Position numbers and translations under genes: made by a program. 39,797 nt of DNA, taken from positions 1 to 39,797 of the forward strand of contig CASEOP010000048.1 of assembly GCA_949289505.1 (NCBI GenBank), written 5' to 3'. The notes under the pieces were generated by a model that did not search any database, was not told the DNA's origin, and saw nothing but the letters and a program-made list of their open reading frames with translations. The DNA is from an uncultured Mycoplasmatota bacterium (GTDB taxonomy: Bacteria; Bacillota_I; Bacilli_A; RF39; UBA660). Shown in pieces: positions 2,700 to 39,655 of this stretch; position 1 is the first letter of the stretch; the number at the start of each line of letters is the position of its first letter.

Positions 2700-3920
2700 A
2701 TGAAGATAGAAACACTTAAAAGAAGTCATTTAAAAAGAAACATTATCATAGGAGTATTTGCAGTAGCGGTAATAAGTGCAGCAATATTAAATTTCACAAG
2801 AGCTAAATACCGGGTAACACAAAGTATACCACTTGTAACAGGGACAATTAATTATAAGTTAGCTGACTTAAATGTTATAGCGATGTATCAAGTAAACGAA
2901 AGTGGTGGATATGATTCGATAGATACAGTGCCTGATTCAGGCTATGTTTTAAATGAAGAAGAAAGTTACTGTGAAATTGATAGAGAAAAAGATGACAGTA
3001 TTACTATGATATATGAAAATGGTGTAGTAAATATTGGTGTTAAGGAAAAAGGCACAAAATGCTATTTGTATTTTGATGAAGGTGGATTATTATCAGGAAA
3101 TTTAGCCGAATCTATTATAGCAAACGCAGGAACAGATCAAATTTTAAATGATGACACTTCTGCACAAAATCCAAGATTTGTTGGTGCAGATCCGGATAAT
3201 TATGTATACTTTAATTGTGATGATTATAATAATCCAAGTAGTAGTACATGTGAATTATGGAGAATTATTGGAGTATTTAGTGAAGATACCCATGTTAGGA
3301 GTGGTGAAAAGTTAGTTAAATTAATACGAGATGAAAGTATTGGAAGCTACGCATGGGATTCAGGAGATGTTAATGATTGGACAACGGCAAGTTTACAAAA
3401 AAGTTTAAATGGAAGTTATTTAAGTGGAACAACCTTAGGAAGTGGAAAAGGAATAACCAGTGCAACAAATAACATGATTGAGACCGTAACATGGAAATTA
3501 GGAGAAAGTAGCACCTACAATGATGTAACAGCAAGTATGTTTTATGAAAGAGAAAGAGGAACAACAACATGGAAAGGAAAGATAGGATTAATGTATCCAA
3601 GTGATTATGGATATGCAACAAGTGGAGGAAGTACAACAAATCGCTCGTCTTGTTTAGCAAAAGAACTGTTTAATTGGGATAGTTCTAGTGATTGTAAAAA
3701 TAATGATTGGTTATATGATAGTGGTACTACTCAATGGACTTTAACTCCTCTTTCTTCTAGCACCGGCTACGTGTTTGGTGTGACCAACGACGGCATTGTC
3801 GGCAACCGCCACATCGCGCTCAACCGCAATGCCGTGCGTCCATCTATCTATCTAAAATCTAATATCGCGATTTCTAGCGGAACCGGATTAAGTTCCAATC
3901 CATATACTTTGACTGACTAA
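2700..3920 (+). CDS. Membrane-anchored or secreted surface protein with a C-terminal lectin-like (DUF6273/DUF1566-like) domain
   Basis: N-terminal TM or signal anchor (NIIIGVFAVAVISAAILNF). The C-terminus shows the pattern QWTLTP...GYVFGVTNDGIVGNRHIALNRNAVRPSIYL. From memory this resembles the W-x-(S/T)-(S/T)-P ... G ... VRP(A/S)(L/I) signature of DUF6273/DUF1566-type domains. Not verified by search. Confidence 0.6.
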   Translation: MKIETLKRSHLKRNIIIGVFAVAVISAAILNFTRAKYRVTQSIPLVTGTINYKLADLNVIAMYQVNESGGYDSIDTVPDSGYVLNEEESYCEIDREKDDSITMIYENGVVNIGVKEKGTKCYLYFDEGGLLSGNLAESIIANAGTDQILNDDTSAQNPRFVGADPDNYVYFNCDDYNNPSSSTCELWRIIGVFSEDTHVRSGEKLVKLIRDESIGSYAWDSGDVNDWTTASLQKSLNGSYLSGTTLGSGKGITSATNNMIETVTWKLGESSTYNDVTASMFYERERGTTTWKGKIGLMYPSDYGYATSGGSTTNRSSCLAKELFNWDSSSDCKNNDWLYDSGTTQWTLTPLSSSTGYVFGVTNDGIVGNRHIALNRNAVRPSIYLKSNIAISSGTGLSSNPYTLTD

Positions 3921-17206: not shown

Positions 17207-17794
17207 ATGGAAACAAAAGATACTACTAAAAAAAGATTAGTATTAGCATCTTTAATAATTGTAATGTCAATCGTTATAATTGGTATAAGCATTTCATACG
17301 CATACTTTTTAAATACAATTGAAGAAGTAAATAGTTCTAATCAAGGTCTAAATATTACTAGTGGAGAATTGACTATGAATTTTACTACTGAAAGATATAT
17401 AAAAACTAATAGTGCTTCACTAATAAATGATGCTGAAATAACTAGTAAAGCAGATTATACTTCTTTTAGTGTAACTATGCCTAGCTCATCATCTGCTGAT
17501 TCAGCCACATATAATTTATACTTGACGGAACTAAATATAAGTGATAATTTAAAAAATGGTTATGTTAAATGGGCATTATATGATGGCTCTGGTTCAAATC
17601 AAATAGCTAATGGTAATTTTGCTAGTGCAACAACAGGAACAAATTTAACATTAAAAAATAATATAACTATTAGTAAAGGCAATACTAATTCATATCGTTT
17701 ATACATATGGTTAAGTAATGATCCAAATAATAATCAAATTGATTTATTAAATGGCACGTTAAGTGCTAAAGTAGGATTTACCGCAACAACATAG
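17207..17794 (+). CDS. Secreted TasA/camelysin-like protein with a SipW-type signal peptide (paralog 1, orphan location)
   Basis: Signal peptide KKRLVLASLIIVMSIVIIGISISYAYF ends in the (G/S)x(F/Y)AYF motif of SipW-cognate signals. The body aligns by eye with the 34811 and 33321 proteins: SATYNLYLTELNIS against SATYAIVLDISNNTF, and NSYRLYIWLSNDPNNNQIDLLNGTLSAKVGF against TYNYTLEINYVDTNANQNHNANKTFNGNVKVEF. The ORF track starts at GTG 17198, but ATG 17207 has the better RBS spacing. Confidence 0.7.
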   Translation: METKDTTKKRLVLASLIIVMSIVIIGISISYAYFLNTIEEVNSSNQGLNITSGELTMNFTTERYIKTNSASLINDAEITSKADYTSFSVTMPSSSSADSATYNLYLTELNISDNLKNGYVKWALYDGSGSNQIANGNFASATTGTNLTLKNNITISKGNTNSYRLYIWLSNDPNNNQIDLLNGTLSAKVGFTATT

Positions 17795-17889: not shown

Positions 17890-18591
17890 ATGAGATTTAT
17901 TGAAATAAAACATTGTTACAAAGTATATAAAAATGGTGTAGCAGCCGTTGCCGATTTATCCCTTAATATTAATAAGGGGGAATTTGTTTTTGTAATAGGA
18001 GCAAGTGGCTCAGGCAAGTCTACTTTAATTAAAATGTTATATCGTGAAGAAAAACCAACTAAAGGAATTGTCGAAATAGGTGGTATAAACGTTGGTAAAT
18101 TACGTAATCGAACTGTATATAAATTAAGACGTAAATTAGGAATAGTTTTTCAAGATTTTAAACTATTACCTAAGCTAACTGTATATGAAAACGTTGCTTT
18201 TGCACTAGAATGTTTAGGCATGAAGGGTAAAGAAATCAGACCAAAAGTAATAAAAGCTTTAGAACATGTTGGCTTAAAAGAAAAAATTCGTAGTTTTCCC
18301 AATGAGTTATCAGGTGGCGAACAGCAAAGAGTATGTATTGCTAGAGCAATAGTTAATAATCCCAAATTATTAATATGTGATGAGCCGACAGGAAATCTTG
18401 ATCCTAAAACATCAAAAGGTATAATGGAAGTGTTAGAAACAATCAATAAAGAATTAGGCACAACTATTATCATGGCTACTCATGATAAAGAAATAGTAAA
18501 CCGTATGAAGAAAAGAGTAATTGTTTTAGAAAATGGCCTTTTAGTTCAAGATCATGAGAAAGGAAGTTATAAAGCTAGTGAAAGTATTTAG
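17890..18591 (+). CDS. ftsE: Cell division ATP-binding protein FtsE
   Basis: Walker A GASGSGKST, ABC signature LSGGEQQRV, Walker B LLICDEPT. It is followed by ftsX. Confidence 0.92.
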   Translation: MRFIEIKHCYKVYKNGVAAVADLSLNINKGEFVFVIGASGSGKSTLIKMLYREEKPTKGIVEIGGINVGKLRNRTVYKLRRKLGIVFQDFKLLPKLTVYENVAFALECLGMKGKEIRPKVIKALEHVGLKEKIRSFPNELSGGEQQRVCIARAIVNNPKLLICDEPTGNLDPKTSKGIMEVLETINKELGTTIIMATHDKEIVNRMKKRVIVLENGLLVQDHEKGSYKASESI

Positions 18592-19471
18592 AATATTAGG
18601 AAGAAGTATTAGAGACTCTTTTAAAAGCGTCTTTAGAAACTTTAGTTTAAGTATCGCAAGTATACTATGTACAACAATAACTTTAATTTTAGTTGCCATT
18701 GCCATTGTTTTAACTCTTAATGTCAATTACATAACCAAAGACTTAGAAGAAGAATTAACAATTGTAGTATATGCTAAAAATGAAACAAGTGACGAAGATT
18801 TAAAAATAATTGAAAATAAAATTAATAACATTAATGCTGTAGCAAATGTGGAAGTAAAAAGTAAAGAAGAATGGCGCTTAGAAATGCAAAGTTATTCTGA
18901 TACATTAAATACAACTTTAGAATATTTAGAAGAAAATCCATTATTAGATTCATACATTGTAACAGTTAAAAATGTTGATGACTTAAAACCAGTAGCGCTA
19001 GAAATAAGAGAGTTAGATAATATAGAAAGTGCCAATTATGGTGAAGGAATGGTTGAGGATATAATATCAGTCTTTGATATAATTAAAACGGTAACTTTCT
19101 CAATAGTTATAGCTCTAATTGTTGTAACAGCCTTTTTAATTAGTAATACAATTAAACTAACTATATTCTCTCGAAGAAATGAAATAGAAATTATGAGACT
19201 AGTTGGAAGCAGTAATACATCAATAAAATTACCTTTTGTATTTGAAGGCTTTTTATTAGGAGTTTTAGGTTCAATTATCCCTATTATCATAACTATATAT
19301 GGCTATTTAATAATGTATGAACAAATTAGTACTTCCCCATCATTTAGTATTATAAGCTTATTAAAACCAATGCCTTTTGTATTATACATATCCGTTGCCT
19401 TATTACTAATCGGCTCTATTGTTGGTATGTTTGGTTCCGCAAGAGCAGTAAGGAAGTATTTGAAGATATGA
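18554..19471 (+). CDS. ftsX: Cell division permease-like protein FtsX
   Basis: The layout is TM1, a large extracellular loop, then three C-terminal TMs. The signature IEIMRLVGSSNTSIKLPFVFEG is present. It overlaps the ftsE end, so the true start could be GTG 18578. Confidence 0.88.
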   Translation: MRKEVIKLVKVFRILGRSIRDSFKSVFRNFSLSIASILCTTITLILVAIAIVLTLNVNYITKDLEEELTIVVYAKNETSDEDLKIIENKINNINAVANVEVKSKEEWRLEMQSYSDTLNTTLEYLEENPLLDSYIVTVKNVDDLKPVALEIRELDNIESANYGEGMVEDIISVFDIIKTVTFSIVIALIVVTAFLISNTIKLTIFSRRNEIEIMRLVGSSNTSIKLPFVFEGFLLGVLGSIIPIIITIYGYLIMYEQISTSPSFSIISLLKPMPFVLYISVALLLIGSIVGMFGSARAVRKYLKI

Positions 19472-20706
19472 TAAAAAAAATTATAAATTATACTTTAAAT
19501 ATAGTATTAATTTTTGCTATATTAATTAGTTATTATGTTAGTCCTGAAATTGTTAATGCTTCTAACCCAGAAACATTAGGCGATCTTAGAAAGGAATATG
19601 AAAACTTATTAGCTGAAAAACGAGCTAATGACAATAAAACTGAAGCTGCAAAAGCCGAGATTGCTCGCAAAGAAGCCGCTATAAATGAAGCAAACGAAGG
19701 AATTAGTGATGCTGAAGATCAATATGAAGAAGCGGAACTTGCCATTTCTTTATCTAATGAAAAGATTGCCTCATTAGAAGAAGAAACTAAAAAAGTTTTA
19801 TTATATATGCAACAAATGCAAGGCCAAAATGCGTACGTTGAATATGTAACAGGAGCATCAAGCATGACTGAATTAATCATGCGAGCTCAAGCTGTAAACC
19901 AAGTAACGGGCTATATTCAAACAACAACCAAAAATTTAGAAGAAGAAATCAAGAAAAATGAACAATTAAAAATCGAGTTAAAAGAAAAAAAGGTTCAATT
20001 AGAAAATCAAATAGTTGCCTATCAAGCCGCAATAAGTGAACAGTATGGTAACATAGAAGAATATTCTAAATTTTCTGAAAGCATTGAAGAAAAAGTTACA
20101 AGTGCTAAAAATTTATATGAAAATTATAAAGGATTATGTAGTGAGAATGCTGGAAGCACAGCAGATAGTGTTTTACTTAGCAGTTGTACAAATGTGCCAG
20201 TAAATTCAGGGTGGTTAAAACCTTTAAATAGTGGTGTTATAAGTAGCCCCAAAGGATATCGTACCCATCCTACAACCGGTCAAGTCTATAGCTTTCATAA
20301 TGCAGTTGATATTGCCGTATCTGAAGGTACTAAAATATATGCCGCAGCAGCAGGGGTAGTAAAGGGAATATACGAAAAAACCAAATGTGGGGGAAATAAA
20401 GTTTATATCCAAGTATCAGTAGGAGGAAAAAATTATACGACCTATTACTATCACTTATTAAATATTTATGTAAAAGAAGGAGACGTAGTAACGCAAAACA
20501 CCGTTATAGGAACAGTAGGTGGCTATTCTACCTCAAGTCTTCATGGTGGATATGACACATGTTCAACTGGAGCTCACCTCCATTTTGGCGTTGCTGAAGG
20601 TTGGTATAAAAGCTCACCACCTAACTCTAAAGTTATAGTTCCCCCAGGATTTAAAAATTCCGTGGGCTATCGCTTTTATTCGCGAACTGATTATTATGGA
20701 AATTAG
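19468..20706 (+). CDS. Coiled-coil M23 (LytM-type) peptidoglycan DD-endopeptidase or hydrolase activator, EnvC-like partner of FtsEX
   Basis: A signal or anchor segment is followed by about 200 aa of heptad-rich coiled coil (LRKEYENLLAEKRAND...). The M23 motifs are HNAVDIAV and GAHLHFGV. The ATGA start overlaps the ftsX stop. Confidence 0.85.
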   Translation: MIKKIINYTLNIVLIFAILISYYVSPEIVNASNPETLGDLRKEYENLLAEKRANDNKTEAAKAEIARKEAAINEANEGISDAEDQYEEAELAISLSNEKIASLEEETKKVLLYMQQMQGQNAYVEYVTGASSMTELIMRAQAVNQVTGYIQTTTKNLEEEIKKNEQLKIELKEKKVQLENQIVAYQAAISEQYGNIEEYSKFSESIEEKVTSAKNLYENYKGLCSENAGSTADSVLLSSCTNVPVNSGWLKPLNSGVISSPKGYRTHPTTGQVYSFHNAVDIAVSEGTKIYAAAAGVVKGIYEKTKCGGNKVYIQVSVGGKNYTTYYYHLLNIYVKEGDVVTQNTVIGTVGGYSTSSLHGGYDTCSTGAHLHFGVAEGWYKSSPPNSKVIVPPGFKNSVGYRFYSRTDYYGN

Positions 20707-25943: not shown

Positions 25944-27593
25944 TTGAAAAAAAGATTTATATTTGATGAAAATTATATAAAAAAATATGCTAAAAGAGGT
26001 CGTTTAAGATGGTTAATTATTGGTTTATCAACTCTTGTATTAATTACTATAATCATAATAGTATTATTAGCAAACAAAAATAAACCTAAAAATCCTACTG
26101 AACCAGCTCTTCCCGTATTCGAAATAAAAGAAGAATTAAAAATAGAAGCAGGAAGTAAATTACCAGCTAAAATAGACTATTTTGATAAATTAGAAAACAT
26201 AGACGAGGCTGAAATAGAAATAATTTATCCTGATGAATTCGAACTAAGTTATGATACTTCATTATGCGAAAAAGAAGTAATTGAAGAAATATATAGTAGT
26301 GAAAACCCTAATTATGAAGAATATGAATGTGTTATCAATTATTTGATAACTCCTGCTAGTTATGGTATTACAGTTAAAATTCAAAATGAAGAATATACCG
26401 TTAATTTAATAGTAGAGGATACAAAGCCACCAGTTTTAATAACTCAAGACTTAGAAATATTTGAAAATGAGAAATATGAAGCAACTAATTTTGTAAGTTC
26501 TTGTCTAGATACTACTAGTGAATGTACTATTTCATATTATAGTGATGATAAAGATGAAAATGATAATCCAATAGATTATGCAAACATAACTGAAGTTGGT
26601 GAACACAAAATTAAAATAGTTGCAACTGATGAATATGGTAATACTACTAGTCCAACTGAAGCTAAATTAACTATCTTAAAAAATGATGGAACGTATTACA
26701 CGATTACTTTTAACTCTGATGGTGGTTCTCAAGTAAATGATAAAAATGTTATAGAAAATGGCATAGTTATTAAACCCACAACTCCAACTAAAGAAGGCTA
26801 TGAATTTATAGGTTGGTATTTAAATGATGAATTATTTGACTTTAATACGAAAATAACTAGTGATATTAATTTGATAGCAAAATGGAAATTAGTTGAATCA
26901 GAAAATAGTGGAGGTGGTAATAGTGGAAATGGTAGTACACCGGAAAAACCTTCAATAATAAATGTCACAAGTATATCATTAAATTACAAAACTATCTATT
27001 TAACAATGGGTCAAACCAAAACAGTCACTGCAAGTATATATCCTGCTAATGCAACTAATAAAACGATTACATGGAGTAGTTCTAATAATAATATAGCTCA
27101 AGTATCTAATGGTAATATAACCGCAGTAGGAATTGGAAATGCAACCATTACAGCTACTGTAGGGGGAAAAACTGCTAGTGTCCAAGTAATAGTCAATGAC
27201 ACAAGTAGTAGTCCAACATGTAAATATGGTGATACAGTTTATAATAAAAGCTACATATTATCAGTAAATTTAACCCAAAATAATTGTGCAATAGACCCTA
27301 ATAGCAACCCTAGTGAAACTTTATCTTTAACTGATCGTTCAAGATTAGTCAATAATTTAGGTTCAATGGGTATAAATGCTTCAAATAATATAGCTCATGA
27401 GGCCACAATTCAAAAAGTTAAAAATACTAGTGGCCTAGGTTTAGTTGGCTATCAAATAACCATCAAAGCAAGTGTAATAGATACTAACAATCCGTATGTA
27501 GTCATGACTAGCGAATACATCTTAAATCCAGATGGTTCAAGAAAATTTATAACTAATAACATATGTAAAAACAATGTATGTTTATACCCATAA
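25944..27593 (+). CDS. Membrane-anchored surface protein with a Listeria-Bacteroides (Flg_new) repeat and a Big_2 domain
   Basis: TTG start and N-terminal TM (WLIIGLSTLVLITIIIIVLL). The Flg_new-like unit is YTITFNSDGGSQV...PTKEGYEFIGWYLNDELFDFNTKITSDINLIAKW. The Big_2-like unit is VTSISLNYKTIYLTMGQTKTVTASIYPANATNKTITWSSSNNNIAQVSNGNITAVGIGNATITATVGGKTASVQV. Confidence 0.75.
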   Translation: MKKRFIFDENYIKKYAKRGRLRWLIIGLSTLVLITIIIIVLLANKNKPKNPTEPALPVFEIKEELKIEAGSKLPAKIDYFDKLENIDEAEIEIIYPDEFELSYDTSLCEKEVIEEIYSSENPNYEEYECVINYLITPASYGITVKIQNEEYTVNLIVEDTKPPVLITQDLEIFENEKYEATNFVSSCLDTTSECTISYYSDDKDENDNPIDYANITEVGEHKIKIVATDEYGNTTSPTEAKLTILKNDGTYYTITFNSDGGSQVNDKNVIENGIVIKPTTPTKEGYEFIGWYLNDELFDFNTKITSDINLIAKWKLVESENSGGGNSGNGSTPEKPSIINVTSISLNYKTIYLTMGQTKTVTASIYPANATNKTITWSSSNNNIAQVSNGNITAVGIGNATITATVGGKTASVQVIVNDTSSSPTCKYGDTVYNKSYILSVNLTQNNCAIDPNSNPSETLSLTDRSRLVNNLGSMGINASNNIAHEATIQKVKNTSGLGLVGYQITIKASVIDTNNPYVVMTSEYILNPDGSRKFITNNICKNNVCLYP

Positions 27594-31092: not shown

Positions 31093-33228
31093 ATGAATGA
31101 AGTAATTATTAAAAATATATGTCAAGAATTAAATATTAAAGAATACCAAGTAAAAAATACATTAGAATTATTAAGTGAAGGAGCAACTATACCTTTTATT
31201 GCTAGATACCGTAAAGAAAGAACTGGTGCCTTAGATGAAAATGAAATTAATAAAATAAACGAAGTATATACTTATGGCATAAACTTATTAAAAAGAAAAG
31301 AAGATGTTATCAGGTTAATAGATGAAAAAGGCTTACTTACTGACGAATTAAAAGAAAGTATAATGAATGCCCAAAAACTAATAGATGTAGAAGATTTATA
31401 TCGACCATTTAAGGAAAAGAAAAAAACAAAAGCAACGGAAGCTATAAAATTGGGTTTAGAGCCATTAGCTAAAGAAATATTTAGAGAAAATGCTAATATT
31501 TTAGAAGTTGCTAAAAAATATTTAAACGAAAAAGTAACAAGCCTAGATTTTGCCTTAGAGCAAGCCTGTTACATAGTAGCAGAAAATATTTCAGATAATG
31601 CTTATTTTCGTAAATATATAAGAAATAATATGTATAAAAATAGTATTTTAAAATCAAGTATAAAAAAGAATGCTAGTGATGAAACTAAAACTTATGAAAT
31701 ATACTACAATTATGAAATGAAATTCAAATGGATAAAACCACATCAATTATTAGCTATAAATCGTGGTGAAAAAGAAGGAATATTAAAAGTAAATTTAGAA
31801 AATCCAACTGATGAAATACCAAAGTATTTAGAAACAAAACTTATTCATAAAAATAATATAGAAACAACTAAACTATTAAAAGCTAGTATCAATGATGCTT
31901 TAAAAAGATTAATATTACCAAGTATTGAAAGAGAACTTAGAAGTGAAGCTACAGAAAAAGCTGAAGAACAAGCAATTCACAATTTTGGCATTAATCTAAG
32001 AAATTTATTAATGCAACCTCCAATTAAAAGCAAAACAGTTCTAGGTTTTGACCCAGCATTTAGAACAGGTTGCAAACTAGCTGTAATATCACCTACTGGA
32101 GAGCTATTACATATTGATGTTATATATCCCCATGAACCTAAAAATGATTATGTAGGTTCCAAAAATAAAATATTAGACTTAATAACTAAATATAATATTG
32201 ATATCATAGCCATAGGTAATGGAACAGCATCAAGAGAAAGTGAAGCATTTATAGCTAAAGTAATTAAGGAGGCAAATAAGTCCGTATCATATATAATAGT
32301 AAATGAAGCAGGTGCTAGTGTATATTCAGCCTCAAAACTTGCTCAAGAAGAATTTCCAAGCTTACATGTTGAAGAACGTAGTGCTGTATCTATTGCAAGA
32401 CGTTTAATCGACCCATTAAGTGAGTTAGTAAAAATTGATCCCAAAAGTATAGGGGTAGGTATGTATCAACATGATGTAACGCCAAAAAAACTTGATAGTG
32501 AACTAGAATTTGTTGTTTCAACTGCCGTAAACCAAGTAGGAGTAAATGTTAATACGGCCTCACGAGAGTTATTATCATATATTTCTGGCTTAAATAAAAA
32601 AATGATAGATAAATTAATAGAGTACAAAGAAAAAGCTGGCAAAATTCTTACTAGAAGTGAATTAGCTAAAGTATTTAGTGAGAAAGTATACGAGCAATCA
32701 ATAGGCTTTTTAAGAATACCTGATGCTAAAAATAATCTTGATAAAACAAGTATTCACCCCGAAAGTTATAATATAGCTAAAGAATTACTAAAAAAATATA
32801 ATTTAGAAGAAACTGACATAGGAACAGCCAAAATAAAAGAAATTCTTGAACCAATAAATGTTGAGGAAACATCAAAAGAACTAAACACTGACATATACAC
32901 CTTAGAAGATATCATAAAATCTTTAATAGCTCCATTAAGAGACCCAAGAGATGAATTAAATGCCCCAATACTTAAAAGTGATATCTTAACACTTGATGAT
33001 TTACGTATTGGTATGGAACTTGAAGGAACAGTTAGAAATGTTATTGACTTTGGAGCATTTATTGATATAGGACTAAAAAATGATGCTTTAGTTCACATAT
33101 CTGAGATAACAAACCAATTTATTAAACACCCTAGTGAAGTATTAAGTGTAGGGGATATTGTAAAATGTTATGTTTTAGGTATTGACAAAGACAAAAAAAG
33201 AGTATCCTTGACACTAAAAAATAATTAA
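31093..33228 (+). CDS. tex: Tex-like transcription accessory protein with S1 RNA-binding domain
   Basis: N-terminal Tex motif TIPFIARYRKERTGALDE, YqgF/RuvX-like core (VLGFDPAFRTGCKLAV), HhH region, and C-terminal S1 domain (GMELEGTVRNVIDFGAFIDIG...VHISE). Confidence 0.93.
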   Translation: MNEVIIKNICQELNIKEYQVKNTLELLSEGATIPFIARYRKERTGALDENEINKINEVYTYGINLLKRKEDVIRLIDEKGLLTDELKESIMNAQKLIDVEDLYRPFKEKKKTKATEAIKLGLEPLAKEIFRENANILEVAKKYLNEKVTSLDFALEQACYIVAENISDNAYFRKYIRNNMYKNSILKSSIKKNASDETKTYEIYYNYEMKFKWIKPHQLLAINRGEKEGILKVNLENPTDEIPKYLETKLIHKNNIETTKLLKASINDALKRLILPSIERELRSEATEKAEEQAIHNFGINLRNLLMQPPIKSKTVLGFDPAFRTGCKLAVISPTGELLHIDVIYPHEPKNDYVGSKNKILDLITKYNIDIIAIGNGTASRESEAFIAKVIKEANKSVSYIIVNEAGASVYSASKLAQEEFPSLHVEERSAVSIARRLIDPLSELVKIDPKSIGVGMYQHDVTPKKLDSELEFVVSTAVNQVGVNVNTASRELLSYISGLNKKMIDKLIEYKEKAGKILTRSELAKVFSEKVYEQSIGFLRIPDAKNNLDKTSIHPESYNIAKELLKKYNLEETDIGTAKIKEILEPINVEETSKELNTDIYTLEDIIKSLIAPLRDPRDELNAPILKSDILTLDDLRIGMELEGTVRNVIDFGAFIDIGLKNDALVHISEITNQFIKHPSEVLSVGDIVKCYVLGIDKDKKRVSLTLKNN

Positions 33229-33262
33229 AATAATTTTTTTCACAAAAAACACAAAAAAGTAT

Positions 33263-33291
33263 TGAAATAATAAAATTTTTTTGATATTATT
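33263..33291 (+). promoter_or_regulatory. Strong SigA-type promoter candidate for TasA-like paralog 2
   Basis: TTGAAA (33263-33268), 17-nt spacer ending in TGA (extended -10), TATTAT (33286-33291). The architecture is nearly identical to the promoter at 34756. Confidence 0.55.
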
Positions 33292-33320
33292 TTTACAGTA
33301 AAGGAGGTAAGACAATAGTT

Positions 33321-34034
33321 ATGGAAAAGAAGAACACAATTCTTTTGACAGTTATCGCTGTAGCAACATTATTAGTAGCAGTAGTAGGTGCAACATTTGC
33401 ATACTTCACAGCAACAAGTGCTCCTAATGATCCAAGCAATGCTAGTGCCGATGCTACGACTGCAAATATAGCATCAGTTAATGTAACTTCATCTGCTAAT
33501 CAAAAGGCTTACTTAGAATATCCGGGTGGTATTGCTGTATTAGGCGCTGGCGTACAAATTAAAAAAGACGCTGCATCAGCAGGAAGCACATCTACAGTAG
33601 CTTATAATGTAAATTTAACTTACACAAATGAGACTGCAACTAATTTGCAATACACAATTTATAGAGCTGAAAAAAATAATGAAGATTCAATAGCATTAGC
33701 TGATTTGGATGCATTATGCAGTTTAAGTGTATCTAATGTTGGAGGAGAAGACCAATATTCTTATACATGTACAAAAAATGCTGCCGCATTAGCCGCAAAC
33801 TATGGTACTAAAGTAGGAGAAACTGGTACACTAACAGCAGGTCAAACATCTCAAGAAATTTCAGTAAAAGCAGAAAGCTTTGATCTTGACAGTGAAGCTG
33901 CTATAAATAATTCATACTATTATTATGTAGTTGTAGAGTATCCTAATTCTGGTGACCAAAACGCAGATATGGGCGATGCAATAACATTAGATTTAGATGT
34001 AACACAAGCAACTGTTAGTACTGCAAAAGACTAA
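33321..34034 (+). CDS. Secreted TasA/camelysin-like protein with a SipW-type signal peptide (paralog 2, probable major subunit)
   Basis: Signal peptide KKNTILLTVIAVATLLVAVVGATFAYFTATS. The end of the body, YYYYVVVEYPNSGDQNADMGDAITLDLDVTQA, parallels the TasA C-terminal pattern ...QG....L.F.FEATQ. The gene has an AGGAGG RBS, its own promoter and its own terminator. Ala-rich composition and more GC-rich codons suggest high expression. Confidence 0.75.
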   Translation: MEKKNTILLTVIAVATLLVAVVGATFAYFTATSAPNDPSNASADATTANIASVNVTSSANQKAYLEYPGGIAVLGAGVQIKKDAASAGSTSTVAYNVNLTYTNETATNLQYTIYRAEKNNEDSIALADLDALCSLSVSNVGGEDQYSYTCTKNAAALAANYGTKVGETGTLTAGQTSQEISVKAESFDLDSEAAINNSYYYYVVVEYPNSGDQNADMGDAITLDLDVTQATVSTAKD

Positions 34035-34064
34035 AACTAATAATAGAAAAACTATTGAAAACCT

Positions 34065-34092
34065 AAAATCTATCATAAGATAGATTTTTTTT
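34065..34092 (+). terminator. Rho-independent terminator
   Basis: Stem aaaatctatc / gatagatttt with loop ataa, followed by a T-run. Confidence 0.7.
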
Positions 34093-34160
34093 GCAATAAA
34101 ATACTTTACAACCAAAAAGCTAGATATTTATAATTAAATGAATGAGGAGAAGAAGAAAAA

Positions 34161-34721
34161 ATGATATTTAACGATTATAATAATGCGTATGACGAATTTA
34201 TTGGTTCTTATCCACTAAATAATTGTAATAAAATAAGTGGTAACATTTTTGCACAAACATTAAGAAAATACATAAAAAATATTATAAATAATACCTATGA
34301 AGTAAGTGAACTTAATGTCTATATTAAAGGAAGTAATATAGAATGGGATATGTTAATACTAAAGAAAAATATAAGCAATAAAGAAAAAGCATATAATATT
34401 TTTAATCCTGAAAATGTAGTATGTGCTATAGAATTTAAAACTAGTGGATTAATGACTAGTAATATTACCTTTGTTCAAAATTATTTTAAAACGCGAATAG
34501 AAGAGTTGGAAAATTTAAACAAAGAAATAAAATTTGCTTATATATCTCTATGTGAAATACCAAAAATAATTGAATATTTAAAACTTAATTATAAGGATAA
34601 TTGTTTTTGGTTAATAGAAGGATATTATAGAAGTAGGAATAAATCAGATACTAAATTAAATGATTATATGGAATTAGAAATATATTTAAAAAATCTACTA
34701 TTAAATGTTGTTAAAATATAA
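34161..34721 (+). CDS. Hypothetical protein with a possible PD-(D/E)xK nuclease-like core
   Basis: 186-aa cytoplasmic-looking ORF. The candidate motif pair is IEWDMLIL (Asp on a hydrophobic strand) and, about 28 aa later, VCAIEFKTSG (E-x-K). The gene is extremely AT-rich compared with both flanking genes. Confidence 0.35.
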   Translation: MIFNDYNNAYDEFIGSYPLNNCNKISGNIFAQTLRKYIKNIINNTYEVSELNVYIKGSNIEWDMLILKKNISNKEKAYNIFNPENVVCAIEFKTSGLMTSNITFVQNYFKTRIEELENLNKEIKFAYISLCEIPKIIEYLKLNYKDNCFWLIEGYYRSRNKSDTKLNDYMELEIYLKNLLLNVVKI

Positions 34722-34755
34722 CATATAATTTTTTTATAAAAGAATTAAAAAGATA

Positions 34756-34784
34756 TTGAAAATAAGCTAATAATTTGATATGAT
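34756..34784 (+). promoter_or_regulatory. SigA-type promoter candidate for TasA-like paralog 3 plus the giant repeat protein
   Basis: TTGAAA (34756-34761), 17-nt spacer ending in TGA, TATGAT (34779-34784). It shares ATATTGAAAATAA...AATTTGATAT with the promoter at 33263. Confidence 0.5.
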
Positions 34785-34810
34785 TAAAACATAATATGGA
34801 GGTCTTATTA

Positions 34811-35383
34811 ATGAGCGTAACAAAGAAGAATATAATTTTATCAACCGTATTATGCTTTAGTATAGCTTTAATAGGTGTATCTTTTGCTTATTTTGCAAGT
34901 AGTGTTAACATTACAGGTAATGGTGCCTCAGTATCAGGCTCAACTGCCGATTTGATTAAAGTATCTTATGATGCTGGAAGTAGTATTCTAAGTTTAAATA
35001 ATGCAATTCCTGGGGATTTAGCATCTAAAGAGTTTAGTGTTAAAATCACCCCAACGGCTAACGAAAACAGTGCAACATATGCTATAGTATTAGATATTAG
35101 TAATAATACTTTTGAAAAATGTACAAATGCCACAAATGGTTGTATATTAAATGCAAACGAATTAACTTATACTTTAAAAGGTTCAGATGGTAGTACTTTA
35201 GCTAGTGGTGATTTAACTACTGCAAACGGAAAAATTACCCTTTTAAAAGAGACTAAAACTACTAGTGTTGAAACAACTTATAATTATACATTAGAAATTA
35301 ATTATGTAGATACAAATGCTAATCAAAATCATAATGCAAACAAAACTTTTAATGGTAATGTAAAGGTAGAATTTGCTGATTAA
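34811..35383 (+). CDS. Secreted TasA/camelysin-like protein with a SipW-type signal peptide (paralog 3)
   Basis: Signal peptide KKNIILSTVLCFSIALIGVSFAYFASS. The body carries NAIPGDLASKEFSVKIT (compare TasA PGD...F.F.N) and ends in NANQNHNANKTFNGNVKVEFAD. ATG 34811 follows GGAGG by 7 nt; the ATG at 34796 in the ORF track overlaps that RBS. Confidence 0.75.
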   Translation: MSVTKKNIILSTVLCFSIALIGVSFAYFASSVNITGNGASVSGSTADLIKVSYDAGSSILSLNNAIPGDLASKEFSVKITPTANENSATYAIVLDISNNTFEKCTNATNGCILNANELTYTLKGSDGSTLASGDLTTANGKITLLKETKTTSVETTYNYTLEINYVDTNANQNHNANKTFNGNVKVEFAD

Positions 35384-35416
35384 AACAATTAAATACAAAA
35401 GTAGGGAGTGTTCCAA

Positions 35417-37537
35417 ATGAACGATAGTAATTTACAAGAACAATATGCTTTATTAGAAGAAGAGGAAAGAGAGAATAAAAAGAAAACCATCATAATTATT
35501 ATATTATGCTTATTAATTATATTGACAACTCTTTTAGGAATTTTCTTCTCTATTTCCGGTAATAAAAAATGCAATTTAAACTGCGATACCGATGGCGATG
35601 GTGTATGCGATTTGAATTGTGATACTAACGGTGATGGTATATGTGATGTTAATTGTGATACCGATGGTGATGGCAAACCTGATATTAATATTGATTATAA
35701 TGGTGATTTAATACCTCACTTTAATATTCAAGTAGATGGTGAAATTATAAATCAATTAAATAAGGATATTGATGGCGATGGCAAATGCGATTTGAATTGT
35801 GATATTGATGGTGATGGCTGGCCTGATATTAATATAGACTTCGATAATACTAACACTTGTGATATAAATTGTGATTCAAACGGTGATAATAAGCCTGATT
35901 ACAATATAGATACTGATGGCGATGGCAAACCAGATATTAATATAGACATTGATGGTGATAATAAACCGGATATAAACATCGACATTGATGGTGATAATAA
36001 ACCTGATATAAACATTGACACTGATGGTGATAATAAACCGGATATAAACATCGACACTGATGGTGATAATAAACCTGATATAAACATCGACACTGATGGC
36101 GATGGCAAACCTGATGTTAACATTGATTATGATGGCGATGGCAAACCTGACTATAATATAGATACTGATAGTGATGGCAAACCAGATGATAACCTAATAA
36201 ATCAAGATACAAATAACGATGGTAAATGCGATATAAATTGTGATACAAATAACGATGGTGTGCCTGATATAAACATCGACATTGATGGTGATGGCAAACC
36301 TGATATTAATATAGACACTGATGGCGATGGCAAACCAGATATTAACTTAGATATTGACAAAGATAAAGAGCCTGATATTAATATAGATACCGATGGTGAT
36401 GGCAAACCTGATGAAAACCTTATGAATCAAGATACAAATAACGATGGCAAATGTGACATAAACTGCGATACTGATGGTGATGGCTGGCCTGACATAAACA
36501 TTGATATAGATAATGATGGCAAACCAGATATTAATATAGATACTGATGGTGATGGCAAATGTGATGTCAATTGTGATACAGATAATGATGGCAAACCAGA
36601 TATCAATATTGATATAAATAAAGATGGCAAACCAGATGTCAATATAGATACTGATGACGATGGCAAACCAGATGACAATTTAATAAATCAAGATACCGAT
36701 GGTGATGGTGTTTGCAACATAAATTGTGATACAAACGGTGATGGCGTGCCTGATACCAATATAGATATTGATGGCGATGGTAAACCTGATATTAATATTG
36801 ATGAAGATAATGATGGAGCGTGTGACTACAATTGTTATGATGATTTATATTATGATGCTAATTTAAGTGGAATTAAAGTTGGTAATTATAATTTAAAACC
36901 TAATTTTAATAATAAAATCACTAATTATACTGTAAATGTAGAAAAGAATTTAAATAGTATTGTTGTTGAAGCAACTGCTTTAAATCCTAAAGCGAAAATT
37001 ACAGGAACAGGAGTAATTAATTTAACCGAAGAAAGTACACGGGTAGCAATTACTGTAACTGCTGAAAATGGAAGTACAAAGACTTACTATGTAACTATTA
37101 TAAAATCAGTTGAACCTTCAACTTCTGACGAAGGAGAAGGAAGTTACGAAATTAGCAATGATTCATTAATGGTAAGTTTTACGAAGGCCATGAACGCAAC
37201 AAATATTATTCCTGGATGGGAAGGAACACATGCTTTTACAGTTACTAACAAATCTGATCAAACTTTAGTTTACAATATTAATTTAGTAAAAGTATCAAAC
37301 ACATTTAAAAATAACGAATTTGTCTTTAATTTAGTAAAAGATGGTAAAGTTTTAATTGAAGAAACACCAGCTTTAACTAGTGACAAAACAGTATATAGCA
37401 ACCTCGTAATTGCTCCTGGCGAAACTGCTACATTCCAGATGAATTACAAATTTATTTATCACGATTATAGCCAAGATTATAATCAAGGAGTAAGATATAC
37501 AGGAACCGTTGAAATAACTTTTGATGCTATTCAATAA
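35417..37537 (+). CDS. N-terminally membrane-anchored giant surface protein with Asp-rich Ca-binding (TSP type-3-like) repeats, a cadherin-like beta-sandwich and a C-terminal TasA-like domain
   Basis: An acidic cytoplasmic head is followed by a TM helix (TIIIIILCLLIILTTLLGIFFSI). About 35 units of the D-x-N-x-D-x-D-G-D-G-K-P type follow, some with Cys (CDLNCDTNGDGICD). The cadherin-like motif is LSGIKVGNYNLKPNFNNKITNYTVNV...ITVTAENGSTKTYYVTI. The C-terminal ~150 aa align with the small TasA-like paralogs and end in DYNQGVRYTGTVEITFDAIQ (compare TasA NKYQGNSIKLQFSFEATQ). The ORF track starts at GTG 35408; ATG 35417 follows an AGGGAG RBS. Confidence 0.8.
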   Translation: MNDSNLQEQYALLEEEERENKKKTIIIIILCLLIILTTLLGIFFSISGNKKCNLNCDTDGDGVCDLNCDTNGDGICDVNCDTDGDGKPDINIDYNGDLIPHFNIQVDGEIINQLNKDIDGDGKCDLNCDIDGDGWPDINIDFDNTNTCDINCDSNGDNKPDYNIDTDGDGKPDINIDIDGDNKPDINIDIDGDNKPDINIDTDGDNKPDINIDTDGDNKPDINIDTDGDGKPDVNIDYDGDGKPDYNIDTDSDGKPDDNLINQDTNNDGKCDINCDTNNDGVPDINIDIDGDGKPDINIDTDGDGKPDINLDIDKDKEPDINIDTDGDGKPDENLMNQDTNNDGKCDINCDTDGDGWPDINIDIDNDGKPDINIDTDGDGKCDVNCDTDNDGKPDINIDINKDGKPDVNIDTDDDGKPDDNLINQDTDGDGVCNINCDTNGDGVPDTNIDIDGDGKPDINIDEDNDGACDYNCYDDLYYDANLSGIKVGNYNLKPNFNNKITNYTVNVEKNLNSIVVEATALNPKAKITGTGVINLTEESTRVAITVTAENGSTKTYYVTIIKSVEPSTSDEGEGSYEISNDSLMVSFTKAMNATNIIPGWEGTHAFTVTNKSDQTLVYNINLVKVSNTFKNNEFVFNLVKDGKVLIEETPALTSDKTVYSNLVIAPGETATFQMNYKFIYHDYSQDYNQGVRYTGTVEITFDAIQ
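35570..36844 (+). repeat. Coding repeat region made of degenerate 36-bp (12-codon) Asp-rich units, with three ~75-85-aa super-repeats
   Basis: Periodic GATGG(T/C)GATGGCAAACC(T/A)GATATTAATATAGA-type units run throughout. The super-repeat marker NQDT(N/D)(N/G)DG(K/V)C(D/N)INCDT occurs three times, at about 36195, 36425 and 36685. Confidence 0.9.
35933..36112 (+). repeat. Five near-identical 36-bp tandem repeats
   Basis: Units start at 35933, 35969, 36005, 36041 and 36077. The consensus is gatataaacatcgacactgatggtgataataaacc(g/t). The four units starting at 35969-36077 differ at about 2-7 positions (mostly 2-3). The first unit (35933) is more divergent, at about 6-11 positions. Confidence 0.9.
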
Positions 37538-37548
37538 AAATAATTTTT

Positions 37549-37572
37549 ACCTATCATATTGATAGGTTTTTT
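37549..37572 (+). terminator. Rho-independent terminator after the giant repeat protein gene
   Basis: Stem acctatca / tgataggt with loop tat, followed by a T-run. Confidence 0.7.
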
Positions 37573-37582
37573 CATAATAATA

Positions 37583-37611
37583 TTGTAATTTCAAAACAAT
37601 TAGGCTATAAT
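37583..37611 (+). promoter_or_regulatory. Promoter candidate for the SipW-like peptidase gene
   Basis: TTGTAA (37583-37588), 17-nt spacer, TATAAT (37606-37611). Confidence 0.45.
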
Positions 37612-37636
37612 ATATAGTAGAATAGGAAGGGTCAAA

Positions 37637-38413
37637 ATGAAAGATAATAAAACTTTATGGCGTAAAATCATACACATTATATCAAAAATATTATCATGGA
37701 CCCTATTTGTTATTTTACTTTTAATCGCAGCATTTCTAATATATTATTACATAGCTAACCAAAATTATATAAAAAAGGGTAGTGGTTATGAACCAAAATT
37801 TTCAATATACACCATAGCAACTGGTTCAATGGTTCCGAACATAAATGTTTTAGATGCAGTTATTAATAAAAAAGTTGAAAGTCCCAATGATTTAAAAGTT
37901 GGTGATGTAATTACGTTTAGATCAACAAGTGTATTAACAGCAAATATGACTATAACTCATCGTATAAAAGCGATAGAAACTGATGAAGAAGGAAATATTT
38001 GTTACATTACCAAAGGTGATGCTAATAATGTAGAAGATGATTCATGTACAAAACTAAATAATATTATAGGTAAAGTTATAATAAGAATACCAGGCCTAGG
38101 ACACATTCAAAAATTCTTAGCATCTAAAGCAGGATGGTTATTATGTATTTTAATTCCCGCATTATTTATAATAGGAAAAGACATAATGAAATTAACAAGA
38201 TTATCTAGTATAAACGAAAATGCAAGCAAGATGGGTGAAAAAAAGAAAAAAGACCCAAGAAAGGTAATGGCCGAAAAAAAACGTAAAGAACAAATAAAAA
38301 GAAATTTATTAAATGAAAGTAAAGAACCAAAAAGCTATTATAAAGATCCTAACATAAGAGTAATAGAAAAGAAAAAACCAAATAAAGTCAAAGAAAAACG
38401 AAAGAAAAAATAA
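37637..38413 (+). CDS. sipW: Signal peptidase I, archaeal/ER type (S26B, SipW-like), with a C-terminal TM and a Lys-rich tail
   Basis: N-terminal TM. The catalytic Ser context is IATGSMVPNINVLDAVI and the His context is MTITHRIKAIE. The GDAN motif is YITKGDANNVEDD. A second TM follows (AGWLLCILIPALFIIG), then a ~65-aa K/E-rich tail. Confidence 0.85.
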   Translation: MKDNKTLWRKIIHIISKILSWTLFVILLLIAAFLIYYYIANQNYIKKGSGYEPKFSIYTIATGSMVPNINVLDAVINKKVESPNDLKVGDVITFRSTSVLTANMTITHRIKAIETDEEGNICYITKGDANNVEDDSCTKLNNIIGKVIIRIPGLGHIQKFLASKAGWLLCILIPALFIIGKDIMKLTRLSSINENASKMGEKKKKDPRKVMAEKKRKEQIKRNLLNESKEPKSYYKDPNIRVIEKKKPNKVKEKRKKK

Positions 38414-39655
38414 TTATTTATCTTTCGTTTTTTTATTAAATTCTTTAGCTAATAATCCCTTTTTAATTAAACTACGATAATTATGTTCGTTTATAATAAA
38501 ATCAAATTCACCAATAAATTCATAAAAATGTGGCTTAAATCCTAACTTAAATTTATTTAAACCTTTATAAGGATTATTATCACTAAAATCTCCTGTTAAA
38601 CCATTTAAATCCATAAACTTATAATCATTTTTATAATATTCTAACAATTGATAATGAAGAAAATAATTAGGGTTAAAATGTTTATATTTTTTATCAAATC
38701 CACTTATAACAATATGAACTCTATTTAAATATTTAATAACAAAAGCTCCACCAACATAAACATATTTATGTTCATTTAAACCTTTACTAGCAATTTCAAT
38801 ATCATTTTTATAAGATAACAAATTTTTATCCGAATTCATTTTTTCTTTTATAAATAATTCACTTGAACTTTCAATTAATTTTTTAGATATAATATTATTT
38901 TTAATTAATTCCTCATCATATAATTTTTTACTATTTATTAAATATTTTTCATAATCTAATTTTATTAAGAAAATATCTGCTGCCATATCTTTATCAAACA
39001 CATTAAAATAATTCTTATAATAAACAGCATCATTATTTTTCTTTCTTTTTACAAAATCAAATAAAACATCAATATTTTCTCTACCCGACTTTTCGAAAAC
39101 TAATCCTTTTTTTAAAGCTTTTCTAATCTTATTTTTTGTGTTCTTACTTAAGTTATCAAAATTATATTCCTTTAAATTAACAATCCCGTTATAACGCGGA
39201 AATAAACTTTCAAAGTATTTATTATCCCTAAGTTTTAAAAAGCCTAATTGCCTCAAATAATCTCTAACTACAATATTTTGATTATAATTAGTTATTTGTG
39301 ATAGTGGATTAATTTCACCAATTGCTATTTCCGGATTAATTTTAATAAAAGTTAACTTTTTCTCATAATATTTTCTTAATAATTCCACAAAACTTTTTAA
39401 CAAATCAAAATTCATATAATCAATTAAAAAACCTTTAGGGCAATAACCATATTTACAAGATAAACTTATTTTTTTTATTAAAATTAATGATGCAGCTTTA
39501 ATTACCCCTAATTCATCAACTAAACCTACAAACTCATAGTCAAATCCCATTTCTGCCATAAAAAGTGCGTAATTAGAGCTTTGATAATAAGAGCTTATAG
39601 GAAAACTTTTAGCAAAGCCATCAAATTCAGCTATAGAAAGTTCTTTTAAGTGCAT
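38414..39655 (-). CDS. FemAB-family peptidoglycan interpeptide-bridge aminoacyltransferase (FemX/MurM-like)
   Basis: 413 aa. The N-terminal domain shows FAKSFPISSYYQSSNYALFMAEMGF...YGYCPKGFLID. A central helical insertion lies at about aa 235-290. The C-terminal region shows GGAFVIKYLNRVHIVISGFDKKY...GLNKFKLGFKP. Confidence 0.75.
   Translation of the reverse strand: MHLKELSIAEFDGFAKSFPISSYYQSSNYALFMAEMGFDYEFVGLVDELGVIKAASLILIKKISLSCKYGYCPKGFLIDYMNFDLLKSFVELLRKYYEKKLTFIKINPEIAIGEINPLSQITNYNQNIVVRDYLRQLGFLKLRDNKYFESLFPRYNGIVNLKEYNFDNLSKNTKNKIRKALKKGLVFEKSGRENIDVLFDFVKRKKNNDAVYYKNYFNVFDKDMAADIFLIKLDYEKYLINSKKLYDEELIKNNIISKKLIESSSELFIKEKMNSDKNLLSYKNDIEIASKGLNEHKYVYVGGAFVIKYLNRVHIVISGFDKKYKHFNPNYFLHYQLLEYYKNDYKFMDLNGLTGDFSDNNPYKGLNKFKLGFKPHFYEFIGEFDFIINEHNYRSLIKKGLLAKEFNKKTKDK

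Follow-up and report, generated by a model that had tools for sequence, protein, structure and literature searches.

TasA-type donor-strand fibres are one of the principal protein scaffolds in biofilms of Gram-positive bacteria and archaea. In Bacillus subtilis TasA the donor strand comprises residues 28-38, the first 11 mature residues, which are inserted into the next subunit, and TapA is thought to start the chain by giving its own N-terminal strand (PMC9674648, PMC10151520). The tethering of such fibres to the cell is debated: the role of TapA is disputed, the membrane route taken by BsaA is unexplained, and the TafF and AbpX-cluster anchors are only predicted. In Clostridium perfringens BsaA oligomers are attached to the membrane and not to peptidoglycan, and on the basis of modelling and mutants intermolecular isopeptide bonds are predicted for BsaA (PMC11580942). 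In the AbpX clusters of the Bacillota, LPXTG and SLH anchors are predicted by AlphaFold 3 to join the fibre by donor-strand complementation, with calcium implicated in assembly (10.64898/2026.01.04.697558), and the anchor role of TafF in the haloarchaeal Tafi pili is itself only proposed (PMC12337348). Here we analyse a locus in contig CASEOP010000048.1 (a stretch of 39,797 nt with a G+C content of about 27%, the whole of which is termed the window) that brings together a SipW-type signal peptidase, a hypervariable and a conserved TasA-like subunit, and a protein that would lead from a membrane helix to an acceptor domain, and that represents a compact and strongly conserved test case.

We propose, with about even confidence, that this locus encodes a SipW-dependent surface-fibre system (pilus or matrix) of the TasA superfamily in which a 706-residue stalk protein, G, acts as a tethered acceptor. 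The system would be specific to a clade of uncultured gut Bacilli represented by metagenome-assembled genomes (MAGs) labelled “Mycoplasma sp. CAG:776”, Tenericutes or Bacilli, and is probably a new variant of the known class of SipW-associated TasA-superfamily fibres. In the following, A, B and C denote the secreted proteins encoded from positions 33321, 34811 and 17207, respectively, and X denotes the open reading frame (ORF) that starts at 34161.

The peptidase, its candidate substrates and the stalk protein

The SipW-type (endoplasmic reticulum (ER)/archaeal-type) signal peptidase I of 258 residues is encoded at 37637..38413 (+). It scores 91.6 bits against TIGR02228 (sigpep_I_arch; cut-off 51.85, E 4.4e-26) and carries Ser (GSM) and His (THR) boxes in place of the Ser-Lys dyad, plus a GDxN box. 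The GSM, THR and GD.N boxes are unchanged in 17 peptidase homologues, some of which are only 41% identical, in agreement with the preliminary description, which had assigned the gene to this enzyme type. The Bacillus SipW equivalog NF046067 is not reached (80.3 bits against a cut-off of 190); judged from its sequence the enzyme is of the SipW type, but shows no orthologue-level match to Bacillus SipW. Two transmembrane segments are followed by a Lys-rich C-terminal tail of about 70 residues (38192..38413), which also contains Arg, bears the conserved motif YY-x-[DE]-P-x-[IV]-K and terminates in KRKKK.

Two secreted TasA-like subunits are encoded in the same locus, A (33321..34034, +; 237 residues) and B (34811..35383, +; 190 residues, with GGAGG 8 nt 5' of the ATG), and C (17207..17794, +; 195 residues) is an unlinked third paralogue. 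After an N-terminal hydrophobic stretch their signals end in ...GATFAYF, ...GVSFAYF and ...ISYAYF, with predicted cuts at MEKKNTILLTVIAVATLLVAVVGATFA|YF in A, GVSFA|YF in B and ISYA|YF in C. A six-frame scan of the whole window for [ST][FY]AYF-type signals returned exactly these three ORFs, which are the ones named in the first reading. The residue pair at the predicted cut (A|Y) is invariant in all three proteins, and the first mature residues are conserved as Y-F. C sits just upstream of an ORF for an ABC-type ATPase (17890..18591) that is ftsE-like by eye.

Relatives were collected by scanning one genome per GTDB species, which yielded 54 loci encoding relatives of B (related loci are given L-numbers and individual relative proteins P-numbers below). 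The close relatives are gut MAGs of animal and human origin, submitted under the names “Mycoplasma sp. CAG:776”, “uncultured Tenericutes”, “uncultured Bacilli” and Candidatus Caccenecus (Bacilli incertae sedis). Residues 1-31 of A (signal peptide plus YFTA; 33321..33413) are 98% identical in 16 orthologues, whereas the mature part is only 29% identical, a pattern to be expected if A is a major subunit that is exposed and diversifies while its processing and donor region is constrained. This constant start was seen across 16 species-level genomes (loci L001-L030). Searches with A gave no direct Pfam or NCBIfam match. For B, 58 homologues were found, and the alignment used here contains 32 sequences (B and 31 homologues). 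The AlphaFold model of B has a predicted local distance difference test (pLDDT) score of 83, rising above 90 over residues 60-190, and its mature residues 30-43, roughly the first 15 of the mature protein, are disordered, which fits the expectation for a free donor segment.

Pairwise BLASTP matches among the paralogues are weak (E 1e-5 to 0.2) and largely confined to the signal peptides. The mature parts were compared with hhalign after the signal peptides had been stripped, with reversed sequences as controls; the B family matched the A family with an E-value of 2.9e-5 and C with 2.7e-5, compared with 0.095-0.36 for the controls (0.095 for B versus C). The body pattern that had been noted by eye in all three proteins is therefore a real, though weak, homology. 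Profile comparisons of the A family with G and of C with G were not significant, which leaves B as the hub of the evidence. It is with B that the C-terminal part of G aligns: the last 140 or so residues of G match the B family in hhalign with a probability of 96.7% and an E-value of 4e-10 over 132 columns. The G side of this comparison consisted of the last 150 residues of 16 sequences (the window protein and 15 orthologues), so that no signal peptide contributes to the match, and the claim that G carries the domain of the small proteins at its C-terminus is upheld. In a tblastn search this domain also matched a 185-residue protein with a FAYF signal in L036.

G is encoded at 35417..37537 (+, stop codon included). 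Its ATG is preceded at 8 nt by the ribosome-binding site AGGGAG, which confirms the start codon originally chosen. The protein opens with an acidic tail of 23 residues (MNDSNLQEQYALLEEEERENKKK; 35417..35485, +) that is predicted to be cytoplasmic and is near-invariant in 16 orthologues. This tail is followed by a transmembrane segment (residues 24-47; 35486..35557, +) that ends in ...LLGIFFSIS and could be either a signal-anchor or a divergent SipW-type signal, its hydrophobic stretch being about 23-24 residues long. Residues 52-479 (35570..36853, +) form a putatively calcium-binding stalk in which an Asp-rich unit of 12 residues, [IC]-D-x-[DN]-G-D-x-K-P-D-[IV]-N, is repeated about 35 times; some units have paired Cys residues and most contain a DxDxDG motif. 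Tandem Repeats Finder reports a period of 36 nt with 21 copies, plus higher-order periods, and the orthologues vary between 482 and 924 residues through differing repeat number. The stalk gave no match to Pfam TSP_3 at E <= 1 and only marginal filamin matches among solved structures in the PDB; on this evidence its membership in the thrombospondin type 3 repeats is not supported. A cadherin-like beta-sandwich at about residues 481-565 (36857..37111, +) is recognised by PF12733 (aa 494-562; 32 bits, cut-off 24.2, E 1.7e-7), and has pLDDT values of 84-97 in the AlphaFold model of the C-terminal part of G (model residues 1-85). A TasA-like domain, probably a jelly-roll, occupies approximately residues 567-706 (37115..37537 including the stop codon, +), ends in ...YNQGVRYTGTVEITFDAIQ, and is a candidate acceptor-only module.

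The order Tex, A, variable insert, B, G, SipW is kept in about 15 species-level genomes, a positive outcome for the co-occurrence survey suggested in the preliminary description. Tex (31093..33228, +) and A lie upstream in 15 loci, with A directly downstream of Tex, and the order B, G, SipW and the FemAB-family gene on the opposite strand (38414..39655, -) is found in 14 of the 14 loci long enough to show it. A SipW homologue with 41% identity also adjoins a B-like gene in the more distantly related L054, and lies about 7 kb away from one in the likewise distant L045. The gap between A and B is a variable insertion spot, occupied in L004 by four unrelated and unassignable ORFs. X (34161..34721, +), which had been described as PD-(D/E)xK-like, gave only a sub-threshold match to DUF6602 and no match in PADLOC, and is absent from the A-B gap in all related loci; we therefore reject it as a part of the system.

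Promoter-like sites with extended -10 elements are present upstream of A (33262..33290, +; TTGAAA, 17 nt, TG-n-TATTAT) and of B (34756..34784, +; TTGAAA, 17 nt, TG-n-TATGAT). Since the frequency of such sites does not exceed that in shuffled sequence (35 found, 38 +/- 6.4 expected by chance), they constitute weak evidence. An AT-rich terminator-like hairpin followed by a T-run lies 3' of A (34065..34092, +; aaaatctatc-ataa-gatagatttt-tttt); it falls under the G+C criterion of the scanner and was found by direct reading, while a second hairpin with a T-run, 3' of G (37549..37567, +), was returned by the motif scan. The transcriptional organisation first outlined for the locus is thus retained as regards the extended -10 sites and the hairpins, but not as regards the weight given to the promoters. 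Apart from this point and the PD-(D/E)xK assignment, the earlier statements on the sequence of the locus were borne out on re-reading. Four ORFs of 67-95 residues with LPSPSVS-type repeats on the opposite strand (35389..36678, -) are antisense to the Asp-repeat DNA and almost certainly are not genes. Elsewhere in the window, a 549-residue protein with an N-terminal transmembrane helix (25944..27593, +) looks like another repeat-containing surface protein.

Relationship to the TasA/camelysin superfamily

Searches with the window proteins themselves, which had been suggested as a check on the TasA assignment, were negative: A, B, C and G have no match to PF12389 (Peptidase_M73) at E <= 1, nor do A, B and C match TIGR04088 at this threshold, and G, too, gave no match to TIGR04088. 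In A, B and C the motif G-x-[ST]-[FY]-A-Y-F can be recognised by eye. PDB sequence searches with B and with the B-family profile returned nothing relevant. The relationship becomes apparent through homologues. PF12389 is matched by six of the 32 B homologues at E <= 1, and three of the four homologues that were scanned individually pass its gathering threshold of 22.5 bits (26.5, 25.3 and 22.9 bits), the best of these matches (26.5 bits) spanning profile positions 17-179 of 196. TIGR04088 is matched by 18 of the 32, with a best E-value of 3.8e-5.

A similar picture was obtained for the C-terminal domain of G. The first protein search with this part of G gave three matches, the alignment built from related loci gave more, and an exhaustive search with a three-sequence profile of the domain collected 746 protein clusters (50% identity) at E <= 1e-3. 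Almost half of the scanned relatives (45/93) match PF12389, with a best E-value of 4.2e-13; 14 of the 93 weakly match the BsaA model TIGR04090 and five match the NCBIfam TasA model NF046066. The TasA-like domain is the N-terminal module in 52 of 149 listed clusters, and the complete proteins among these mostly start with a signal of the G-x-[ST]-[YF]-A-[YFW]-F type. The C-terminal parts found in the 93 scanned relatives include leucine-rich repeat (LRR)/BspA, DUF285, RCC1, DUF6273 and Gli349-like domains. Wall-bearing, uncultured mycoplasma-related gut bacteria hence encode a large and varied family of this module, many members of which are fused to adhesin domains; these proteins are likely to be major surface antigens and colonisation factors, nameless in current annotation.

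Comparison with TasA itself gave less. The query sequence was checked and is 100% identical to PDB 8aur_A, and hhalign of all four protein sets against this single sequence reached at best an E-value of 0.015. The sequence NKYQGNSIKLQFSFEATQW, quoted in the preliminary description as the end of TasA, is present in the protein (PDB 8aur_A) but is not its extreme C-terminus. The AlphaFold models of B and of the C-terminal part of G are confident and all-beta, the latter with a pLDDT of 86.5. In a Foldseek search with the B model the TasA fibre structure 8aur_A ranks 25th by E-value but has the highest query TM-score (0.38) among the 50 matches listed, and about 15 of the top 35 are donor-strand-complemented pilins (FimF, FimA, CupB6, CS20). 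With the model of the G domain, the TasA monomer structures 5of2 and 5of1 come 4th and 9th and lead the 50 listed matches in TM-score (0.34 query, 0.40 target). This modest structural similarity, which derives from predicted models and has E-values of only 2e-4 to 4e-3, appears compatible with TasA likeness and is not decisive. Overall, the evidence supports the view that the small proteins and the C-terminal domain of G form one family, a remote branch of the TasA/camelysin superfamily. The family assignment first proposed is sustained by the homologue profiles; the link is transitive, direct matches are lacking and the structural similarity is modest.

A further protein of the window may be connected with these sequences. 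The ORF at 2700..3920 (+) encodes a 406-residue secreted or anchored protein with a hydrophobic N-terminus ending in ...ILNFTRAKY and a weakly DUF6273-like C-terminal part. In L012 and L017 the gene for its homologue follows immediately downstream of a B-like TasA-like gene, and in L032, L034, L035, L037, L042, L043 and L050 the homologues are fused to a B-like gene to give proteins of about 590 residues. The “FTR[SA]” end also occurs at the end of the transmembrane segment in the G-like proteins P0064, P0228, P0254 and P0280. The 2700..3920 protein is probably a further component or cargo of the same system.

A proposed assembly and its alternatives

In the assembly that we envisage, A, B and C would be exported by Sec and cut by the SipW-type peptidase of the locus after the invariant [FY]-A, giving mature N-termini that start with Y-F. 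This start is predicted from the alignment of TWA|AF in TasA with SFA|YF here, and TasA (A-F) and AbpX (W2) likewise have an aromatic residue at mature position 2 (10.64898/2026.01.04.697558). Each flexible mature N-terminus would then be donated as a strand to the neighbouring subunit, thereby completing its jelly-roll. A would be the major, hypervariable fibre subunit, as suggested by its putative own promoter and terminator and by its hypervariable mature part, whereas B would be a conserved adaptor or minor subunit, since it appears to share a transcript with G and the C-terminal domain of G has B as its nearest relative. G would be inserted with its N-terminus in the cytoplasm, where the conserved acidic tail would reside, and its Asp-repeat stalk, presumed to bind calcium, would together with the cadherin-like domain carry the TasA-like domain to or beyond the wall. 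There the domain would provide the cell-proximal, acceptor-only end of the fibre. It is preceded by the cadherin-like domain and has no free N-terminal donor segment; it could therefore accept a strand but not donate one, and would sit at the fibre end opposite to that occupied by TapA. In this it resembles the FimH pilin domain or the archaeal TafF. The functional analogy between G and TapA that had been suggested is mechanistically inverted, since TapA donates the first strand and G could only accept.

Several observations weigh against this proposal. No window protein alone reaches any TasA-related model (Pfam, NCBIfam, PDB sequences), and the alignment of the B-family profile with the single TasA sequence (E 0.015) covers just 31 columns, in the NLKPGD region. 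The Foldseek E-values of 1e-4 to 4e-3 and TM-scores of 0.34-0.40 are approached by generic beta-sandwiches, and the alignment used to model G included B-family sequences, so that the models of B and G are not independent. Calcium binding by the stalk is plausible, the DxDxDG motif being its sole basis. In TasA the groove of a subunit has to be occupied before that subunit extends its strand (PMC9674648), and by this rule an acceptor-only base would not nucleate growth. After the transmembrane segment, G and its orthologues have small residues at -3/-1 (SIS|G, SLS|G, SLA|G), and the sequence YFAYS occurs in some orthologues; G may consequently be cleaved and released.

It is possible, if on balance unlikely, that the fibre system is as outlined but that SipW or a different peptidase cuts G immediately behind its hydrophobic segment, so that G is released as a distal terminal subunit. 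Its layout would then resemble that of FimH, with the stalk and cadherin-like domain serving as an adhesin or calcium-dependent matrix cross-linker and the C-terminal acceptor capping the strand-donating end. In FimH and PapG the C-terminal pilin-type domain lacks a donor strand of its own and is completed by the next subunit. The domain order of G is that of such two-domain chaperone-usher tip adhesins, several of which are among the Foldseek matches of B. The end of the transmembrane segment also resembles the substrate motif: G itself reads GIFFSIS, orthologues end in SLSG, SISK or, in L022, L023, L030 and P0063, GLYFAYS, and related proteins end in GATYSYY, GATFSFY or FFTRS. The earlier remark that G lacks an AYF motif and has an uncleaved-looking helix holds for G itself but not for these orthologues and relatives, in which the degenerate FAYF-like ends suggest that cleavage of G by SipW may occur. 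TapA, too, has a long (43-aa) SipW-cleaved signal (PMC10151520).

We nevertheless favour, on sequence grounds, a G that is retained in the membrane. The would-be -1/+1 pair differs from one G orthologue to another (S|I, S|G, A|G, T|R); in A, B and C, by contrast, A|Y is invariant. The hydrophobic segment of about 23 residues has a typical transmembrane length, and a near-invariant 23-residue acidic tail would be unusual for the n-region of a disposable signal. A tail of this kind is present in 20 of the 21 clusters that combine a C-terminal TasA-like domain with an N-terminal transmembrane helix, these 20 being divergent; the remaining cluster has a prepilin-type signal. P0241, a 290-residue relative from outside the window, has a type IV prepilin-like N-terminus (MMKSKGFTLVEIIV...) and a C-terminal TasA-like domain, and would fuse two different fibre-subunit principles. 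The acidic tail of G (LQEQYALLEEE; 35417..35485) and the Lys/Arg-rich tail of the peptidase, both presumably cytoplasmic, are oppositely charged, a hint that the two proteins may touch each other directly.

We consider it unlikely that no fibre is formed at all, the TasA-like domain being a monomeric beta-sandwich module with a handle or binding function, G a calcium-binding adhesin that binds its ligand through the C-terminal domain, and the SipW-type enzyme a peptidase that merely processes this class of protein. A handle or binding role of this kind was once assumed for camelysin. Polymerisation is indeed an extrapolation from related systems, carbohydrate-binding modules and other sandwiches score in structural comparisons about as well as TasA, to which the similarity is modest, and the occurrence of the domain as an N-terminal module with varied C-terminal parts could indicate a general surface module. 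However, all structurally characterised filaments of the TasA superfamily (TasA, AbpA, AbpX, Tafi, cannulae) assemble by donor-strand complementation (PMC9674648, PMC9245690, PMC12337348, 10.64898/2026.01.04.697558), and the same mode of assembly is predicted for BsaA from modelling (PMC11580942). Furthermore, the Y-F that follows the predicted cleavage site is conserved and modelled as part of a free extension, and every genome examined has retained, next to the genes for subunits and peptidase, a copy of the domain that lacks exactly this extension.

A wider reading, which we regard as distinctly unlikely, is that the TasA-like module underlies a general sortase-independent means of holding proteins at the surface, in which, in this clade, G-type acceptors capture any SipW-processed protein bearing an N-terminal donor strand and a TasA-like domain, while G docks on the peptidase. 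If this were true, the captured set would include the fusions to LRR/BspA, DUF285, RCC1, DUF6273 and Gli349-like adhesin domains, and the degenerate FAYF-like end of the transmembrane segment and the acidic tail of G might dock on the peptidase and its Lys-rich cytoplasmic tail, thereby coupling cleavage with capture in space.

A P-type (LepB-type) signal peptidase I fragment is encoded in one related MAG. It lies at L012:1-339, scores 95 bits against TIGR02227 (cut-off 47) and carries KRIIGLPGE...GDNRxxSxDSR; the fragment represents the C-terminal part of a LepB-type peptidase. L012 derives from MAG CALVQO01, which also contains an A-B locus (L005) and a G-SipW locus (L033). The SipW-type enzyme is thus not simply the housekeeping peptidase and would appear to be a second, specialised one, subject to binning error, as the LepB-type gene is placed in that genome by metagenomic binning only, a further point on the opposing side. 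The LepB-type fragment is followed by ORFs resembling ylqF/rbgA and rnhB by eye, and a B-like paralogue lies 8 kb downstream of it together with a gene resembling that at 2700..3920. It is highly unlikely that the SipW-type enzyme is the general signal peptidase of the lineage, adjacent to TasA-like genes without functional meaning: the window encodes no other signal peptidase although ordinary signal peptides are present (e.g. in the M23 peptidase at 19468..20706), but the adjacency is held in all 14 informative loci and, at 41% identity of SipW, in L054 and at about 7 kb in L045, a LepB-type peptidase occurs in a MAG that has the locus, and SipW-type enzymes are linked to TasA-family genes in both Bacillota and archaea (PMC9245690; 10.64898/2026.01.04.697558).

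Comparison with described systems

The architecture of G (acidic tail, transmembrane helix, Asp-repeat stalk, cadherin-like domain and acceptor-only TasA-like domain) was not found in the literature searched, nor did we find there an account of TasA-type systems in mycoplasma-related gut Bacilli, or of a minimal module of about 140 residues radiating as the N-terminal part of multi-domain surface proteins. The earlier view that this architecture is undescribed therefore stands for the exact combination, but not for the principle, since fibre-like anchors have already been proposed (TafF and the LPXTG/SLH proteins of AbpX clusters). FimH and PapG resemble G in that a functional part at the N-terminus precedes a pilin-type domain at the C-terminus. 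They belong to Gram-negative systems with an unrelated machinery (periplasmic chaperone and outer-membrane usher), and FimH occupies the distal tip, in contrast to the membrane insertion predicted for G.

The sipW-bsaA-bsaB-bsaC locus of C. perfringens (PMC11580942) likewise combines SipW with remote TasA homologues. BsaC, the accessory protein there, carries a von Willebrand A domain, and no stalk protein with a C-terminal TasA-like domain has been described in that system. The haloarchaeal Tafi pili (PMC12337348, PMC11821415) are strand-donation fibres, as is proposed here, and TafF, TafF1 and TafF2, their proposed anchors, share with G the layout of a transmembrane helix and a jelly-roll, a likeness in architecture only. 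The Tafi subunits are exported by the twin-arginine translocation (Tat) pathway, the system is archaeal, and TafF has neither an Asp-repeat stalk nor a cadherin-like domain. The AbpX-type clusters of the Bacillota (10.64898/2026.01.04.697558) are similar to the present locus, as interpreted here, in that a TasA-superfamily fibre is accompanied by a dedicated signal peptidase. Their anchors are fixed on the wall through sortase or SLH domains whereas G would be held by its N-terminal transmembrane helix, their calcium sites lie at the strand-groove interface whereas the putative sites of G lie in a separate repeat stalk, and the associated peptidase has ten transmembrane helices, compared with two segments observed here.

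With tapA-sipW-tasA of B. subtilis (5OF1, 5OF2, 8AUR) the locus shares a dedicated ER/archaeal-type peptidase encoded with its substrates, signals that end in aromatic-Ala | x-Phe (TWA|AF there, SFA|YF here), a probable jelly-roll/sandwich domain of the Peptidase_M73 superfamily and an accessory protein in the locus. The subunits here are smaller (about 160 mature residues compared with 234 in TasA) and too divergent to be recognised directly by PF12389, the gene order differs, and there is no TapA homologue; in particular, G gave no TapA-related match in Pfam and NCBIfam scans. TapA donates an N-terminal strand, whereas the TasA-like domain of G is C-terminal and its N-terminus consists of a cytoplasmic tail and a transmembrane helix. 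G could thus serve as an anchor, though not in the manner of TapA.

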